From: a virus
Virus genome (UHGV): UHGV-1660455
DNA: 22,842 bases
Direction: 5' to 3' (one strand)
A program made the translations under genes and the position numbers. The notes beneath the pieces are model-generated. The model was not told where the DNA came from and made no database searches. It saw nothing but the letters and a program-made list of their open reading frames with translations. This document shows, one piece after another, positions 6,460 through 22,032 of this stretch (its first letter is position 1; each line of letters begins with the position of its first letter).

Positions 6460-8976
6460 TTACCTGCGATTGGTCGCATTCCAGATAAGCCCACCGGGCT
6501 GGATTGCCCTGGCGATACCATCGTTGACAGATTTGTTAATCACCTGCTGATACGCCTTACCCAGCCTGTCTCCGTCGTTTTGCTGCTGTGCGTTACCGGA
6601 AGCATTCTCGACCGTCACCGGGGCATATACACTGACACCGAAAGGTGCTGCAGCCGGGCCTGTACCACCGCCCCCGACATACCCACCCGTGGCATACCCT
6701 TTCATCATCCGGTAAAGATTGCCGACGCCGATCCGGCTGGTAGCCTCTTTGGTGAAAACAAATTCACCACGGTGAACGACACCTGCAGGTTCATATTTCC
6801 CGCCTGAACCGGTATAACCGCCACCTGCAAATCCCAGCGCGGTTGTCGCTGAATCCACCAGGCCTACCATCGCCTGTTTCAGCAGGATCTGTGTCAGCAT
6901 GGAGAGCGTGGAGCGGGTGAAGTCAGCCCAGTCAGCCTTTCCGCGCGTCAGCATGTCAGCCATATTTTGCCCGATGCCATCAAACGCACTGGTGGCAGCC
7001 GACTTCATCTGGCCATAAGCATCTGAAGCAGAATCAACATAATCTGCCCATGCGGATTTGGCTCCGGACTGCCAGTCGTCCCGCAGCTTATCCTGCTCGG
7101 CGTAATACGCCTGCAGCGCCTGCAGCTCATTCTGATAACCAGCATCGTTCTCCGAACCACCACCATTTTTCCAGCCCTGAAGAAGCTGGGCCTCTTCATT
7201 GCGACGTTGTGCTGCACGACTGCTCATACCAGCACTTTCCGCAAGGGCTCGGGTTTTCTCGCCGATCTGCGTGACGTATTTTTGGGACGTATCCTGCAGG
7301 CGATTAAGCCGCTCCTGCGCCACTATCTGATCGCCGAGCTTCGCATTCAGCTCCGCACGGGAAAGCACCTCACTTTTACTGGCCAGCAGGGATTTTTCCT
7401 CAGCAGAAAGCGTTCGGGTCTTCGCGGCCTCTTCCAGAACCGTAAAGCGGGACTGCTGACGCCACAGCTCCTGACGCTGCTGGCTGATGGTGTCATTGAT
7501 GCTCTTATGCTCCTGCAGGGTGCGCAGCTGTGTCTGTAGCTCCAGCGTATGGGCACTGGCCGTATCGGTGGCACGGGCACCTGCGGGGGTTCTGATCGCC
7601 GGGGTCTTCTTCGGCTTTTTAAGGGTGTCTTCGTACTCTTTTTTCGCGGCAGCCAGGTTGATGTTGTAGTCAGCCTGGAGGATCCGCCCCTCTTTCAGCG
7701 CCTTGTTGAGCTCGCTCTGCCTGGCCGTGTATTTCTCCAGTGCCGTCTGCGTTTTGGCATAGTTTGCCTGTGCCTGCGCAGCATACTTCTGGCGATCCGA
7801 TTCCGCAGCCGCTTCGCGCGATGCATTCTCTTCGTTCGCCCTGGCAATTCCCGCCTGCTGCTGCGCCATATCCAGCGCAAGCCTGGCCGTTTCGCGGTCA
7901 TTCCAGAATCGGGCGCGAGCCTCATCATTGACATATCGGTCACCTTTACGCAGGTTCCAGATTTCATCAGCTTTTTTGAACGCGGCTTCGGCTTTTGCCA
8001 CCATCTCCTGCGCGGTGTCAGGTCGGCCAATATCGAGGGCTGCATCCCACATCGACTTGAAGGCGCGCTTCAGGGAGTCCGCTGAAGACTCTATCGTCCC
8101 CATATTGTCGCGGATGGCTTTGGTCTGATCGTTGAATCCGGCTGTAGCCGCCTCGTTAGCCGCCTGCAGTGCGCCAGCCTCATCACCGGCACGCTGCAGC
8201 TGCGCCACATGGGCAATCTGTTCTGCGGTAACGTTATGGAACTGCTGGGCCATCGCGATCAGGCCCGATGTCGGGTCAGTTGCGAGCTTGCCGTAGGCTG
8301 CAGCGACTTTCTCCACCGGCACGCCGGAGGCATCAGTAAACCGCGCCACCGCCTGGCTCATTTCATCAAAGCGCGAGCCAGTACGCACACCTGCATTGAT
8401 AAGCTCGGTCAGGGCTTCACTGGTCTGGTTGAACGTTAGCCCCGCTGCCTGTCCGTTCCGCGCCAGTGCCAGCATGCGGTCAGCTGTCAGTCCGGCTGTG
8501 TTCCCCGACAGTACCAGCGTTTTGTTGAAATCAGACAGAGTGGAAGAGCCCTGGTACCAGGCATAGAACAACGCGCCCGTTGCAACGGACAATGCACCAA
8601 TGCCGACCATCAACGGGGAAATCGTCCCCAGCAACGCCCGGAATGTCGGAATGATCCCGCCAAAGGAGTCCTTAACCTGACCGCCCTGCTGAAGCAGAAT
8701 CAGCCAGGGGTTCTGCCCACCCGCCAGCTGCGTGGCCACGTCAGTAAACTGCGCCGGAAGCATACGCATTGCTGCGTTATACTGGCCTATTGAAATACCC
8801 GCCTTGCGCGCGGCGTTCTCCTGGCGGCTAAAGGACTGCTGGATCCGTAGCGCTTCGTCGTTCGCCGCGCTGCCAGTCTGCTTTAATTCTTTTTTGACGT
8901 AGTTAAGCTGCTCGTTAAATTTCGTCGAGTTAACGTCAAGGTTAACGACCAGATCACCCACTGCCGTCTGGGCCAT
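6460..8976 (-). CDS. H: Tail tape measure protein H
   Basis: 838-aa ORF with Ala/Gln-rich coiled-coil core and Gly-rich C-terminus; N-terminus and the ...AMRMLPAQFTDVATQLAGGQ... segment recognisably lambda H-like. Confidence 0.93.
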   Translation of the reverse strand: MAQTAVGDLVVNLDVNSTKFNEQLNYVKKELKQTGSAANDEALRIQQSFSRQENAARKAGISIGQYNAAMRMLPAQFTDVATQLAGGQNPWLILLQQGGQVKDSFGGIIPTFRALLGTISPLMVGIGALSVATGALFYAWYQGSSTLSDFNKTLVLSGNTAGLTADRMLALARNGQAAGLTFNQTSEALTELINAGVRTGSRFDEMSQAVARFTDASGVPVEKVAAAYGKLATDPTSGLIAMAQQFHNVTAEQIAHVAQLQRAGDEAGALQAANEAATAGFNDQTKAIRDNMGTIESSADSLKRAFKSMWDAALDIGRPDTAQEMVAKAEAAFKKADEIWNLRKGDRYVNDEARARFWNDRETARLALDMAQQQAGIARANEENASREAAAESDRQKYAAQAQANYAKTQTALEKYTARQSELNKALKEGRILQADYNINLAAAKKEYEDTLKKPKKTPAIRTPAGARATDTASAHTLELQTQLRTLQEHKSINDTISQQRQELWRQQSRFTVLEEAAKTRTLSAEEKSLLASKSEVLSRAELNAKLGDQIVAQERLNRLQDTSQKYVTQIGEKTRALAESAGMSSRAAQRRNEEAQLLQGWKNGGGSENDAGYQNELQALQAYYAEQDKLRDDWQSGAKSAWADYVDSASDAYGQMKSAATSAFDGIGQNMADMLTRGKADWADFTRSTLSMLTQILLKQAMVGLVDSATTALGFAGGGYTGSGGKYEPAGVVHRGEFVFTKEATSRIGVGNLYRMMKGYATGGYVGGGGTGPAAAPFGVSVYAPVTVENASGNAQQQNDGDRLGKAYQQVINKSVNDGIARAIQPGGLIWNATNRR

Positions 8977-9307
8977 AGCGCACGCCTCCTGAAATACCTG
9001 CAGCCTTCGCCATCAGCGTATCGTCATCCGGATCATCGATGTCGATGGCTTCCGGTGCAGAGGAAAGAATGCTGAAACTGTCCGGGGTTAACTCCGGATC
9101 GGCAAAAAACAGGGTTGAGATGGTGTAGAGCAAGCCGGAGAAATGTGCGTCCAGCTGCGCATCATGAAAGTAATTGTCCTGGTAGAAGATTTTCCAGTCG
9201 CCGTATTCCGTTGAGGACATGCCAGCAAGCATGGCACGCCAGTCCGGGCGACCGAACTCACGCGCCAGTTTCATGGCAAACTTCAGCTCACTGGCGAGGG
9301 CTTTTCC
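8954..9307 (-). CDS. T: T segment of the tail assembly chaperone G-T fusion, reached by a programmed -1 frameshift from G (putative slip site GGAAAAG at 9301-9307)
   Basis: The ORF in the -1 frame relative to G stays open from the end of G through 8954. The heptamer G_GAA_AAG lies 7 codons before the G stop, at the position where lambda has G_GGA_AAG. Confidence 0.75.
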   Translation of the reverse strand, partial: GKALASELKFAMKLAREFGRPDWRAMLAGMSSTEYGDWKIFYQDNYFHDAQLDAHFSGLLYTISTLFFADPELTPDSFSILSSAPEAIDIDDPDDDTLMAKAAGISGGVRYGPDGSG

Positions 9308-9705
9308 GCAGTAACAGGTTCAGCGGGTTCATTACGTTCTTCACCGGGCTCAGCCTGGTCATCAGTGACCGGCGCAATCATCCCGGACAGGAGTTTCACC
9401 TTATATTCGGCTTCGGCAACAAGTTCGGTCGGCCATGTCTGCATGACCTCATCCTGAATCTGCTCCACTTCCGCCGCCGCGTTTTCTCCCTGCGATCCTT
9501 TAAGCGCGTGGCCATGCCAGAGTGACATTGCCACCAGATATGCTCCACTCTTCACGGTAAGGGTAATGGCAGCCTGAAAATCACCAGCTTCAACCGCCTC
9601 AAGTTGTTTCAGGTATTCGAGGTATTCAATACGCTGCAGCGCCGACAGCTGGAACAATGTGACGCTGCTGCCGTTACTTTCAAGCAGCTCGCTCTTTAGA
9701 AACAT
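9283..9705 (-). CDS. G: Tail assembly chaperone G
   Basis: 140-aa ORF, same length as lambda G, starting MFLK...; follows V. Confidence 0.9.
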   Translation of the reverse strand: MFLKSELLESNGSSVTLFQLSALQRIEYLEYLKQLEAVEAGDFQAAITLTVKSGAYLVAMSLWHGHALKGSQGENAAAEVEQIQDEVMQTWPTELVAEAEYKVKLLSGMIAPVTDDQAEPGEERNEPAEPVTAEKPSPVS

Positions 9706-9741
9706 AATTACTCCGGGGGAACGGGGCTTTCGCCCCGGTTA

Positions 9742-10479
9742 TCAGGAAACAGTGACTTTGCAGATCGCCACAAAGTTACCGTCATTGCTCATTACGATGA
9801 TCTCGACGGTGCCTGCCGCCACGCCGGTAACAGTCAGGGTATTGCCGCTGACGGTGACCGTTGCTTTTGACGGATCAGAACTGGCTACGCGGAAAGACTT
9901 ATCTGAAGCACTTGCTGGCAGGACAGAAACAACCAGTTGCGTCGTGGCCGCGACAGCCACAGCCGCCGTGGATTTATCCAGGCTGATCCCCGTAACGGCA
10001 ATCGGCGCGGTACCACTGTCTTCGGCCAGCGATGGTTTGCCATTGTTGGTGATTTTTGCCGTGCGGGTCATGACCTCTTTAGACGAGATGGTCTTGCCGA
10101 GACTGCTCACCCAGCCCTTAAAGACATCGACAACACCATTCGGATATTTGATTTTATACCCCTTCACGGTGCCTTCATCGAACCAGTTCACCAGGTCCTG
10201 CTGACCGGAATCCTCCGGCATCCATGCGAGCGTCAGGTTTGTTTCACCGGCTGATTTCTGCCCCTGCATCGTTGATGTCCAGTCGGCATTCTCATCATCG
10301 ATGTAGGTGTCATCTTCCGATTCAGCTGTCAGTTCTCCGGGCTGCAGGTCTTTAATCTTTGCCAGGCGCAGCCAGTCAACGTCTGAAAGCGGATTGGCGT
10401 ATGGATCACCAGTTCCGGTGTAAACCCAGAGGGTGGTACCAGCACCTTTTGTTGGTGCCAGCGGGTTTGGTGTGGCCAT
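9742..10479 (-). CDS. V: Major tail tube protein V with C-terminal Ig-like domain
   Basis: 245-aa ORF; the ...[25 protein letters not shown]... N-terminus is recognisably lambda V. Confidence 0.93.
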
Positions 10480-19511: not shown

Positions 19512-20186
19512 TCATCGACGGCACTGCTGCCAGATAACACCACCGGGGAGACATTCCATCATGATGGCCGTGCGGACATAGGAAGCCAGTTCATCCATCG
19601 CTTTCTTGTCTGCTGCCATTTGCTTTGCAACATCCAGATCCGCACATTCAGCAGTATTTTTCAGCGCGTTATCAAGCACCGCTTCGAGATTGGTATCAAC
19701 GCCAGAGTTAACTTCAAATTTGTCGGCGCTGATGGTTACCTTGTTCTGTACTGGCTCATCACGCAGGATACCAAGGCTGATGTTGTAGACTTTGGTCACC
19801 GACTGAGGCTTTTCTAATTCGGCGGCGCGGATAGAACCACCAGCGATATTGGCTTCCTTGATGAATACCTCACCGTTCTTCACAACAAATGGTGAGGTAT
19901 CAATCTCAACGCCAAGCGTCATCGAAGCGCAATATTGCTGCTTACCAAAACGCGTATTGACCAGGTGTTCAACGGCAAATTTCTGCCCTTCTGATGTCAG
20001 AAAGGTAAAGTGATTTTCTTTCTGGTATTCGGTTGCTGTATGTCTGGTTTCAGCAAAGCCAAACTCGCGCAATTCAGCGGCACCAGATTTAGACGGCAGG
20101 TCACCTGACAGCAACGCGCCACGGAAAAAGAGCGAATACAGAACATCCGTCGCCGCACCGGATAACGTAATGATTTTCTGACCCAT
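19512..20186 (-). CDS. Conserved lambdoid-phage protein of unknown function, encoded just upstream of cos
   Basis: 224-aa ORF with an AAAGGAAA ribosome-binding site. It resembles proteins found at the right end of lambdoid genomes, but my recollection of the exact family is uncertain. Confidence 0.6.
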   Translation of the reverse strand: MGQKIITLSGAATDVLYSLFFRGALLSGDLPSKSGAAELREFGFAETRHTATEYQKENHFTFLTSEGQKFAVEHLVNTRFGKQQYCASMTLGVEIDTSPFVVKNGEVFIKEANIAGGSIRAAELEKPQSVTKVYNISLGILRDEPVQNKVTISADKFEVNSGVDTNLEAVLDNALKNTAECADLDVAKQMAADKKAMDELASYVRTAIMMECLPGGVIWQQCRR

Positions 20187-20446: not shown

Positions 20447-20911
20447 ATGATCACCAAAGTAAAAATCAAGTTTATTTCCCCTATTGATGGATCGGTATCA
20501 GATACCCCCACGGAGCATGCAATTCCCGTAGTTCCATTGACAGTATGGCCAAGTAGCTCAAAAGATATAAACGTTTATAAACCAAATGGATTGAAGGCTG
20601 GTGCCTACGCACTTATAGATACCGGAGCAGATCTTTGCTATGTGGATTCAGACTTTGCTGACGATTTAAAACTCCCAATCGCGGAAAAAACAACTGTGAG
20701 CGGAGCCACCTCAACAATAGAAACTACAGTTCGGCATGCGGTAATATCGTTCACTGAGGACGAAAGAGTTTTTTCAACAGAATTGACTTCAGTGCCATTG
20801 GTAAGTAACGGGAGAAAATTCCAAGTCGTTTTCGGAATGCAACTAATTAAAATGGGCGCCCTTACGATGGATTTTTCCAATCAAGTATTTGAGTTAACAT
20901 TTTTTAACTAA
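20447..20911 (+). CDS. Retropepsin-like (clan AA) aspartic protease, 154 aa; AT-rich moron gene on the strand opposite the late operon
   Basis: ORF with a good Shine-Dalgarno (AAGGAAAAAGG-ATG) and the canonical aspartic-protease signature hydrophobic-hydrophobic-D-T-G-A (..YALIDTGADLCYVD..). Markedly lower GC than the flanking phage genes. Confidence 0.75.
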   Translation: MITKVKIKFISPIDGSVSDTPTEHAIPVVPLTVWPSSSKDINVYKPNGLKAGAYALIDTGADLCYVDSDFADDLKLPIAEKTTVSGATSTIETTVRHAVISFTEDERVFSTELTSVPLVSNGRKFQVVFGMQLIKMGALTMDFSNQVFELTFFN

Positions 20912-21176: not shown

Positions 21177-21194
21177 AACCACAGATTTGTGGTT
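21177..21194 (-). terminator. Weak hairpin (AACCACA-GATT-TGTGGTT) with a U-run on the minus-strand RNA, at the 3' end of the Rha-like gene
   Basis: 7-bp inverted repeat overlapping the stop codon by 2 nt; followed on the minus-strand RNA by UUUUGAG. Confidence 0.35.
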
Positions 21195-21879
21195 ATGCGG
21201 CCAAGCGGTGCTGCTCTTCGATAAGTGGCTGGCGGTGATTACGCTCGAACATGCCGCGCAGCACTTCTTTGCGTTGTTCGAAGTCCCACCCCATGCTGAT
21301 GAATACCGTGTTGGCGCGCTGTAGCTCGGTGATGCAGTGAATTTGTTCCGGCGTCAGGTAATCGCGGATCGGCTCTTTCTTCCCGATTTCGTGATGCACG
21401 CGGAACTTGGCCGCCGTCATGCCCAGCGCCAGTCGGTTAATCAGGTCAGCTTCGTTGCTGAAGTGATGCGGGGCGATCTGCTTACCCTGCGCCTCACGCT
21501 CATGCTTGATGGCATCGGTCATAGGCTTGTACTCCAGACGCGCCGAGTTGCGATCCATCTTCTTCTTCGCCAGCGCGCTGCGCATAGTGAAGAATTCATA
21601 TACCAAGCGCTTTTTGAATTCACGCACAACTTCATTGTTTCGCATGTAGGTGATCAACAGCGTGGTTTGCTGTTCGTTTAGCAGTGCTATTTCCTGCTTC
21701 TGCATGCCCCCATCCGTTTGAAAGGGTCGCATTTCAAATTCCACCCTTCCGAATTCTTCGAGGTCGCTTTTGTACTTCCTGATGAGTTGAATCACTGGCT
21801 TGTGATCCTTCATAACACCACTGGCGATCACTGCCGAGTTGGTGACCAGGTCTAGCTTCTTGATTTCTACTAATTGCAT
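21193..21879 (-). CDS. rha: Phage regulatory protein of the Rha family (antirepressor-like)
   Basis: The N-terminus ..LVTNSAVIASGVMKDHKPVIQLIRK.. fits the Rha-domain pattern (T.SS..IA...GK.H..V.R.IR). The tracked ORF runs to 21963, but the Met at 21879 has a plausible ribosome-binding site and begins the conserved domain. Confidence 0.7.
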   Translation of the reverse strand: MQLVEIKKLDLVTNSAVIASGVMKDHKPVIQLIRKYKSDLEEFGRVEFEMRPFQTDGGMQKQEIALLNEQQTTLLITYMRNNEVVREFKKRLVYEFFTMRSALAKKKMDRNSARLEYKPMTDAIKHEREAQGKQIAPHHFSNEADLINRLALGMTAAKFRVHHEIGKKEPIRDYLTPEQIHCITELQRANTVFISMGWDFEQRKEVLRGMFERNHRQPLIEEQHRLAA

Positions 21880-22032
21880 GGCGTGTACCTTTCTTTGAGA
21901 TGAACCTTTGCCGCACAGGAAATCAGCCCGTCGAGGCTCGCCAGCACTAACTGACTTCCTCAAAGGCTCATTTCAAAGGGTATGGTTCGACGTGGGTTGA
22001 ATGCGCTGCGGTGCGCGGTGAAATTCTGGCAT

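Follow-up and report, generated by a model that had tools for sequence, protein, structure and literature searches.

A G_GAA_AAG heptamer, the commonest form in its gene family, as the probable G-T tail-chaperone frameshift site of a lambda/N15-like prophage

In the 22,842-nucleotide stretch of the virus genome UHGV-1660455 (hereafter the window, meaning this whole stretch of DNA), the tail genes G and T are most likely joined by an ordinary tail-chaperone -1 frameshift at the heptamer G_GAA_AAG (9301..9307, minus strand), where two tRNAs would slip and a gpGT fusion would result. Based on sequence comparison, we assign this reading a probability of about 0.88. The site is not new, as it is another copy of the G-T frameshift already annotated in phage N15, and GGAAAAG is the commonest form of the heptamer in this gene family, with the GGGAAAG of lambda in the minority. 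The locus can be classed as a standard G-T recoding site; the remaining interest lies in a near-cognate heptamer as the family norm, in evidence that selection acts on its first base, and in a candidate downstream RNA shared with lambda.

The programmed -1 frameshift between G and T that a preliminary description of this DNA had proposed is supported by the families of both gene products, by a collinear fusion, by conservation of the heptamer and by the bracketing of the site within the overlaps of relatives. Sequence and translation of the open reading frames (ORFs) place the genes around G-T on the minus strand, which had been left unstated. Gene G, the tail assembly chaperone (9283..9705, minus strand, 140 amino acids, taken from the ORF list and its translation), matches the Pfam family PF06894 Phage_TAC_2 with E = 6.5e-52 (residues 1-126 of 126 profile positions). 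Its 3' end reads ACT GCG GAA AAG CCC TCG CCA GTG AGC TGA in the 0 frame, so that G terminates five codons past G_GAA_AAG, with the stop TGA at 9285..9283. In the -1 frame, a stop TGA at 9322..9320 is followed by ACC TGT TAC TGC GGA AAA GCC CTC, and translation shows this T frame to be open on the minus strand from 9319 to 8954, with its stop at 8956..8954, which agrees with the earlier remark that T is open in the -1 frame. Both frames are therefore open over 9283..9319 (minus strand), and the interval 9283-9320 highlighted earlier is this G/-1 overlap. The T segment read after the shift covers 8954..9301 (minus strand; 115 codons plus stop), and the -1 ORF matches PF06223 Phage_tail_T (minor tail protein T; E = 1.7e-12). 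At the slip site, the 0 frame encodes Glu-Lys (GAA AAG) and the -1 frame reads GGA AAA.

The predicted GT fusion, join(9705..9301, 9301..8954), has 250 amino acids, and its junction runs from PVTAEK into ALASELKF. Compared with lambda gpGT, it is collinear across the junction, with PAEPVTAEK followed by ALASELKFAMKLAREFGRPDWRAMLAGMSSTEY in the window and PAEPVSAGK followed by VFDGELSFALKLAREMGRPDWRAMLAGMSSTEY in lambda. In a direct alignment, lambda CTGCGGGAAAGTG stands opposite window CTGCGGAAAAGCC, with one G-to-A difference. This bears out that G_GAA_AAG occupies the position of G_GGA_AAG in lambda, and the sequence likewise agrees with the earlier statement that the A-site slip from AAG to AAA is retained and that the P-site codon is GAA instead of GGA. 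The term "non-canonical", which had also been used for the heptamer, holds only for its first three bases: G-G-A are not identical and so depart from the canonical X_XXY_YYZ rule, and tRNA-Glu would face GGA with a second-position G.U after the slip. The A-site codon follows the canonical rule, with cognate re-pairing from AAG to AAA. As an unusual deviation the heptamer does not qualify, since GGAAAAG is the majority form of the family and is annotated in N15.

The GenBank record of N15 (AF064539) contains a misc_feature "slippery sequence for -1 translational frameshift" at 10027..10033, reading GGAAAAG, and describes gene 15 as the "downstream half of translational frameshift product". Over the G-T region, the nearest phages to the window are mEp237 (98.3% identity), N15 (93.1%) and HK225 (92.0%), and the N15 heptamer aligns base for base with those of the window, mEp237 and HK225. 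Genes 14/15 of N15 and their counterparts in mEp237 and HK225 thus carry the same heptamer at the homologous position and show no substantive difference from the window, which is a chromosomal E. coli prophage copy. To our knowledge, the slippery-sequence annotation of N15 is a prediction and not an assay. In the open-access literature, we found no paper naming GGAAAAG as a tail-chaperone slip site. The annotation of T is inconsistent: RefSeq (NZ_CP029242.1, locus L226) lists it as a partial pseudogene, mEp237 (L001) and HK225 (L003) have a "tail assembly protein GT" begun at an internal ATG, and only N15 marks the frameshift. Annotation pipelines appear blind to G_GAA_AAG, and a rule accepting it beside G_GGA_AAG would correct many prophage T entries.

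Relatives were collected by three scans (window G against IMG/VR, a G-protein alignment with one genome per species, and lambda G against IMG/VR), of which the last returned only near-identical lambda copies and added little. The resulting sample comprised 215 usable loci, 102 of them unique, with G identity down to ~34%. Aligning the junctions across relatives had been recommended as a check, and exactly one in-frame N_NNA_AAG, hence one A_AAG site, was found in each G/-1 overlap. Among the unique loci, the heptamer reads GGAAAAG in 86, GGGAAAG in 14, and GGCAAAG and AGAAAAG in one each. The match goes beyond chance because the heptamer is invariant at synonymous positions in 86/102 unique relatives, with G identity down to 34%. 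GGAAAAG occurs in prophages of Kluyvera, Trabulsiella, Enterobacter, Citrobacter, Kosakonia, Phytobacter and Buttiauxella, as well as Atlantibacter, Leclercia, Erwinia, Serratia, Proteus and Xenorhabdus. GGGAAAG is confined to lambda and its close relatives, E. albertii and one Edwardsiella locus, and its loci occupy two separate places on the G+T tree.

A different slippery site had been named as a possible objection, but none of the overlaps in the unique loci, window included, contains a further canonical in-frame X_XXY_YYZ heptamer or a further A_AAG. Because the overlap boundaries vary across the family, the shift is confined to 10 nt, namely the heptamer plus 3 nt: the -1 frame opens just 3 nt 5' of the heptamer in four loci (L064, L066, L069, L141), and the G stop directly follows AAG in four Proteus loci (L135-L138). 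A pattern scan that was independent of G similarity, in which one of the two heptamers had to lie at a set distance from the invariant GAYTGGCG....ATG of T, recovered 76 unique junctions. Of these, 49 have GGAAAAG and 27 have GGGAAAG, and the frame geometry is as expected in every one. Further T subfamilies came to light in the same scan, all of them using GGAAAAG.

Some relatives deserve separate mention. The stop of G is placed differently after the slip site, with GAA AAG TAG in the Proteus loci (L135-L138), GAA AAG TCC TGA in MLSEM-type loci and five codons in the lambda/N15 subfamily; a slip-site-adjacent G stop might promote the shift in GGAAAAG lineages such as Proteus and the MLSEM type. 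The loci L045 (IMGVR_UViG_3300048929_000058, G_GCA_AAG) and L060 (IMGVR_UViG_2648501177_000013, A_GAA_AAG) keep A_AAG with worsened P-site re-pairing, and could represent functional low-efficiency sites, decaying prophages or sequencing errors. Lambda-identical G-T DNA (L092-L105 and others) turned up in the assemblies of unrelated organisms (Neobacillus, Oceanobacillus, Kitasatospora, Shewanella, Pseudoxanthomonas and Leeuwenhoekiella), on contigs that are short and of low coverage; this is most simply explained as contamination with lambda DNA.

In the proposed mechanism, most ribosomes translating G would terminate at 9285..9283 and yield the chaperone gpG, and a small fraction would slip back by one base with GAA (Glu) in the P site and AAG (Lys) in the A site (9307..9301). 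tRNA-Lys would re-pair cognately on AAA, and tRNA-Glu near-cognately on GGA, where the G:C of the first and the A:U of the third position would be preserved and a G.U accepted between them. The T frame would then be read to 8954, giving a 250-residue gpGT that, like its lambda counterpart, would connect the tape measure with the tail tube protein. We infer the two-tRNA mechanism from the conservation of the first G of the heptamer; a fusion product made at a low, percent-level efficiency would be expected. Throughout the unique loci, the Glu codon of the heptamer is always GAA and never GAG, its Lys codon is always AAG and never AAA, and position 1 is G in 101/102. This position is the four-fold-degenerate third base of the preceding G-frame codon and is untranslated in the T frame, and the codon before GAA itself varies (GCG 46+14, CTG 28, CCG 10, GTG 1, ACG 1, GCA 1). 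The G at position 1 is thus explained by neither protein and is expected from a two-tRNA slip, because tRNA-Glu (anticodon 3'-CUU*-5') moving from GAA to GGA keeps its first-position G:C; it therefore supports two-tRNA slippage.

Given this conservation, it is rather unlikely that tRNA-Lys alone slips on A_AAG (from the A site with no re-pairing in the P site, or from the P site while the A site is empty), which would reduce the slip site to a tetramer and make the upstream GGA irrelevant. Such a tetramer predicts no constraint on position 1, yet its G is held across five codons; in addition, position 3 is A or G (the GGCAAAG singleton aside), both of which permit purine-pyrimidine re-pairing in the P site. 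Slippage of one tRNA nevertheless has precedents, as bare A_AAG supports -1 shifting in E. coli and natural sites with a non-slippery P-site codon exist in B. subtilis cdd (A_CGA_AAG) and IS1222 (G_CGA_AAG) (PMC5009743), and the loci L045 and L060 show that the flanking bases can change. Slippage of RNA polymerase on the A run, giving a -1 mRNA and no ribosomal frameshift, is least probable of all. Nothing specific speaks for it beyond the AAAA within the heptamer; four A fall far short of the run that transcriptional slippage is generally known to require, ~7-9 or longer (for a review see PMC5009743), and the conserved flanking G and the terminal G match the rules of tRNA re-pairing.

An independent start of T, which had been listed as a finding that would speak against the fusion, would have to use the in-frame ATG at 9274..9272. 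This codon is present in the window, and the records of mEp237, HK225 and RefSeq start the T coding sequence there. Across the 102 relatives, however, the codon is CTG in 52, ATG in 40, CTT in 7, TTG in 2 and CTC in 1, so that 62/102, lambda included, have no ATG. In the window it is not preceded by a Shine-Dalgarno sequence, the T residues from the heptamer to the ATG are conserved (xLxxELxF), RefSeq flags its own T coding sequence as partial, and lambda gpT is known solely as the gpGT fusion (PMC5009743). We therefore regard production of T from this ATG without a fusion as highly improbable.

Downstream of the slip site, a 75-nt RNA with a predicted three-way junction (9221..9295, minus strand) starts 5 nt 3' of the heptamer. 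In the minimum free energy (MFE) fold, it consists of a 10-bp outer helix (9295-9286 with 9230-9221), a short hairpin (9282-9278 with 9271-9267) and a long 14-bp hairpin (9266-9252 with 9247-9233), all on the minus strand, and the G stop codon lies just past the 5' arm of the outer helix. A simple hairpin, CGCCAGU...ACUGGCG, had been considered as the downstream structure and was replaced by this fold. The 90 nt of 9295..9206 fold with an MFE of -46.6 kcal/mol (z = -5.4; 0/200 shuffles as stable), and the MFE structure accounts for 54% of the ensemble. In a scan of the 4.2-kb V-G-T-H mRNA, this segment ranks 1/275 both by energy and by z-score; the second most extreme structure lies inside H (7166..7255, minus strand; MFE -40.8 kcal/mol, z = -5.6). 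The antisense strand of the segment reaches -34.9 kcal/mol, is 11.7 kcal/mol less stable and takes another shape. An unusually stable 3' structure within 5-9 nt past the slip site is thus present, with a 5-nt spacer. No Rfam family was found between 8900 and 9800, where only a sub-threshold snoRNA match was returned, and an upstream Shine-Dalgarno-like stimulator is missing from the window and present in just 15/102 loci.

Comparative evidence for the fold was obtained from an ungapped alignment of 39 diverse junctions, in which 78.8% of cells are paired compared to 26-42% in slid controls and 0/500 shuffles reach any of five measures of pairing. In the covariation test, the +1 slid control is not far under the observed value (0.113 vs 0.152), and the arms are coding. 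By frame arithmetic, each pair of the outer helix joins a first codon position of the T frame to a third codon position. Alignment column 84, the third base of an Ala codon, is U in 22/22 sequences with A as partner and C in 9/10 sequences with G as partner, the tenth having G.U, and neither A nor G occurs in this column among sequences retaining the helix. With the stem columns left out of tree building, pair 16-84 is seen to change between A-U and G-C in three or more lineages. When consensus folding was done clade by clade, on phylogenetically defined sets of 25 and 35 sequences, both the outer helix and the long hairpin were recovered. Among the codons in the 3' arm of the outer helix are CUU and GCU, both of which enterobacteria use rarely. 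Taken together, these results suggest that the three-way junction is probably real and under selection in one subfamily.

Retention of the helix is limited to loci in which T reads ...MLAGM, namely the lambda, N15-like, Kluyvera, Enterobacter, Buttiauxella and Serratia group. The MLSEM, MLAEM, MLAQM and other T subfamilies all use GGAAAAG and have z about 0, with one or two exceptions, and the structure therefore does not accompany the slip site throughout the family, being absent or unremarkable in many GGAAAAG loci. Lambda-type GGGAAAG loci have the same fold (one of them, L112, ranks 2), and mean MFE and z show no difference between heptamer types. The idea that the structure compensates for a weak heptamer was rejected, because GGGAAAG loci share the fold and most other GGAAAAG subfamilies have none; the three-way junction is neither needed for upkeep of the heptamer nor a specific compensation for GGAAAAG. 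The profile of synonymous sites along T shows only a modest dip over the structure and, with a sample dominated by two clades, does not decide the matter.

Several observations weigh against an efficient, structure-assisted frameshift at G_GAA_AAG, and they concern both the heptamer and the RNA. In the accessible literature, we found no measurement of frameshifting at a GGAAAAG site in a phage context. The product obtained from G GAA AAG with reconstituted components was mostly 0-frame (PMC6924986), and the A_AAG tetramer without a stimulator is near background, at ~0.15% (PMC4066793). Efficiency at the window site may consequently lie well below the roughly 4% of lambda. RNAalifold applied to all 39 sequences misses the three-way junction and returns a trivial 4-bp helix, and in a set of 20 diverse loci the region following the heptamer is unremarkable in 8/20, with 12/20 in the top 6% by z-score. 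Most T subfamilies other than MLAGM that use GGAAAAG lack excess stability (z about 0), and both arms encode conserved T residues, so that part of the conservation is at the protein level.

The published data on related sites allow these points to be placed in context. Peng et al. 2019 (PMC6924986) used AUG GAA AAG as a "less slippery" or "unfavorable" control against G GGA AAG, owing to its second-position mismatch; frameshifting on G GAA AAG rose with slow EF-G mutants, in which translocation is slowed, in the same direction as on G GGA AAG. In the work of Sharma et al. 2014 (PMC4066793) on E. coli, A_AA.G was the best tetramer by a wide margin, and A_AAG with the IS3 pseudoknot reached 5.6%. 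According to Bock et al. 2019 (PMC6787027), a change from A.U to G.U at the first position in the P site costs ~5 kJ/mol, and G_AAA_AAG with the dnaX stem-loop still shifted at 28%. The suggestion, made before the present analysis, that the frameshift efficiency of GGAAAAG and hence the G:GT ratio could differ from that of lambda is reasonable. A near-cognate heptamer of low efficiency would fit the biology, because lambda requires a G:GT ratio of only ~30:1 (PMC5009743). The "less slippery" control of the biophysical literature (PMC6924986) is a sequence that nature keeps at an essential, low-efficiency recoding site, which makes this locus a natural test case for the tolerance of P-site mismatches in a programmed shift.

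In the lambda/N15 T subfamily, the chances are about even that the three-way junction slows translocation and raises or tunes the frequency of the shift. Its start exactly 5 nt past the heptamer (7 nt in lambda) would put the first pair at the mRNA entrance of the ribosome, it is the most stable of the 275 windows of the V-G-T-H mRNA, pair 16-84 switches through a synonymous Ala position, and the 3' arm keeps the rare codons CUU and GCU. Somewhat under an even chance is given to the alternative that the junction is a real RNA but no frameshift stimulator, acting instead in mRNA stability, processing or translational coupling, or being largely a by-product of conserved T codons. This would agree with the upkeep of GGAAAAG in many T subfamilies without excess downstream stability, and with the same structure in lambda-type GGGAAAG loci. 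Lambda frameshifting reportedly has no strict need for a defined downstream structure (Levin and co-workers, 1993). If functional, a three-way junction common to lambda would add a stimulator to a classic system for which none is described in the accessible literature.

With regard to host factors, Maynard et al. 2012 (PMC3296357) reported that the lambda G:GT ratio responds to thiolation of U34 in tRNA-Lys, and tRNA-Glu and tRNA-Gln are modified by the same thiolation pathway (PMC3296357). That both tRNAs shifting at G_GAA_AAG would carry a thiolated U34 is only a lead towards thiolation sensitivity. A more far-reaching scenario is tentative and in its entirety rather doubtful. In it, the near-cognate G_GAA_AAG, and not the G_GGA_AAG of lambda, would be both ancestral and dominant among the tail-chaperone slip sites of enterobacterial lambda-like phages, two tRNAs would slip with a second-position G.U in the P site, and in the lambda/N15 subfamily a previously undescribed, covarying three-way junction 5 nt downstream would set the G:GT ratio. 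If true, it would make the G:GT ratio doubly sensitive to host tRNA thiolation, because tRNA-Glu and tRNA-Lys both carry mnm5s2U34.

Comparing the window to lambda, both have the same genes, position, AAG-to-AAA slip in the A site, distance of five codons to the G stop and fusion to the T domain, and their downstream RNA architecture is homologous. They differ in the P-site codon, which is GAA in the window (tRNA-Glu moving onto GGA with a middle G.U) and GGA in lambda (tRNA-Gly moving onto GGG), in the spacer to the outer helix (5 nt vs 7 nt) and in the mnm5s2U34 modification, which would be carried by both shifting tRNAs in the window and by tRNA-Lys only in lambda. IS1222 (G_CGA_AAG), B. 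subtilis cdd (A_CGA_AAG) and IS3 likewise move tRNA-Lys from AAG to AAA with imperfect or no re-pairing in the P site and at low efficiency (PMC5009743, PMC4066793). In contrast to these, the P-site tRNA of the window can retain two of its three pairs alongside a G.U, and selection acts on position 1; for both reasons, the site would act as a near-cognate heptamer and not as a bare tetramer. IS911 and dnaX resemble the window in having a stable structure 5-7 nt 3' of X_XXA_AAG, and the stimulator of IS911 is also a three-way junction (PMC5009743), whereas the stimulatory role of the window structure is putative. Unlike these two systems, the window has no upstream Shine-Dalgarno-like element, and many relatives retain the heptamer but not this type of structure.

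As to the surroundings of the site, G-T is placed between the major tail protein and tape measure genes, as in lambda-type G/GT systems. Gene V, encoding the major tail tube protein, lies upstream of G (9742..10479, minus strand; Pfam PF16461 and Big_2), and gene H, encoding the tape measure protein, lies downstream of T (6460..8976, minus strand; PF06791 and PF09718). The operon contains the complete lambda-type morphogenesis set, Nu1-A-W-B-C-D-E-FI-FII-Z-U-V-G-T-H-M-L-K-I-J. The junction sequence was found on the chromosome in 31/5,426 complete E. coli genomes, so that the locus is regarded as a prophage, and the window as the late morphogenesis operon of an E. coli prophage of the lambda/N15 type. 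The 3' end of T and the start of H overlap by 23 nt (8954..8976, minus strand), and T codons 103-115 show nearly zero synonymous variation across relatives, as expected from dual coding or translational coupling with H.

Upstream of Nu1, where lysis genes would be expected before cos in a lambda-type prophage, the window instead has a 224-amino-acid ORF with only a fragment of a tail-tip-fibre domain (19512..20186, minus strand), an aspartyl-protease-like ORF on the strand opposite to its neighbours (20447..20911, plus strand) and a Rha regulator (21193..21963, minus strand). A scan of 8900..9800 for promoters and terminators detected nothing. The interval separating V from G contains a hairpin, CGGGGC-GAAA-GCCCCG (9722..9737, minus strand), which has a loop of the GNRA type, lacks a U tract and folds with an energy of -15.9 kcal/mol (z = -2.2). 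The N15 record labels the homologous stem-loop a putative rho-independent terminator; the hairpin of the window fails to score as one, and might dampen transcription or translation on the way from V, which is abundant, to G, T and H, which are scarce.

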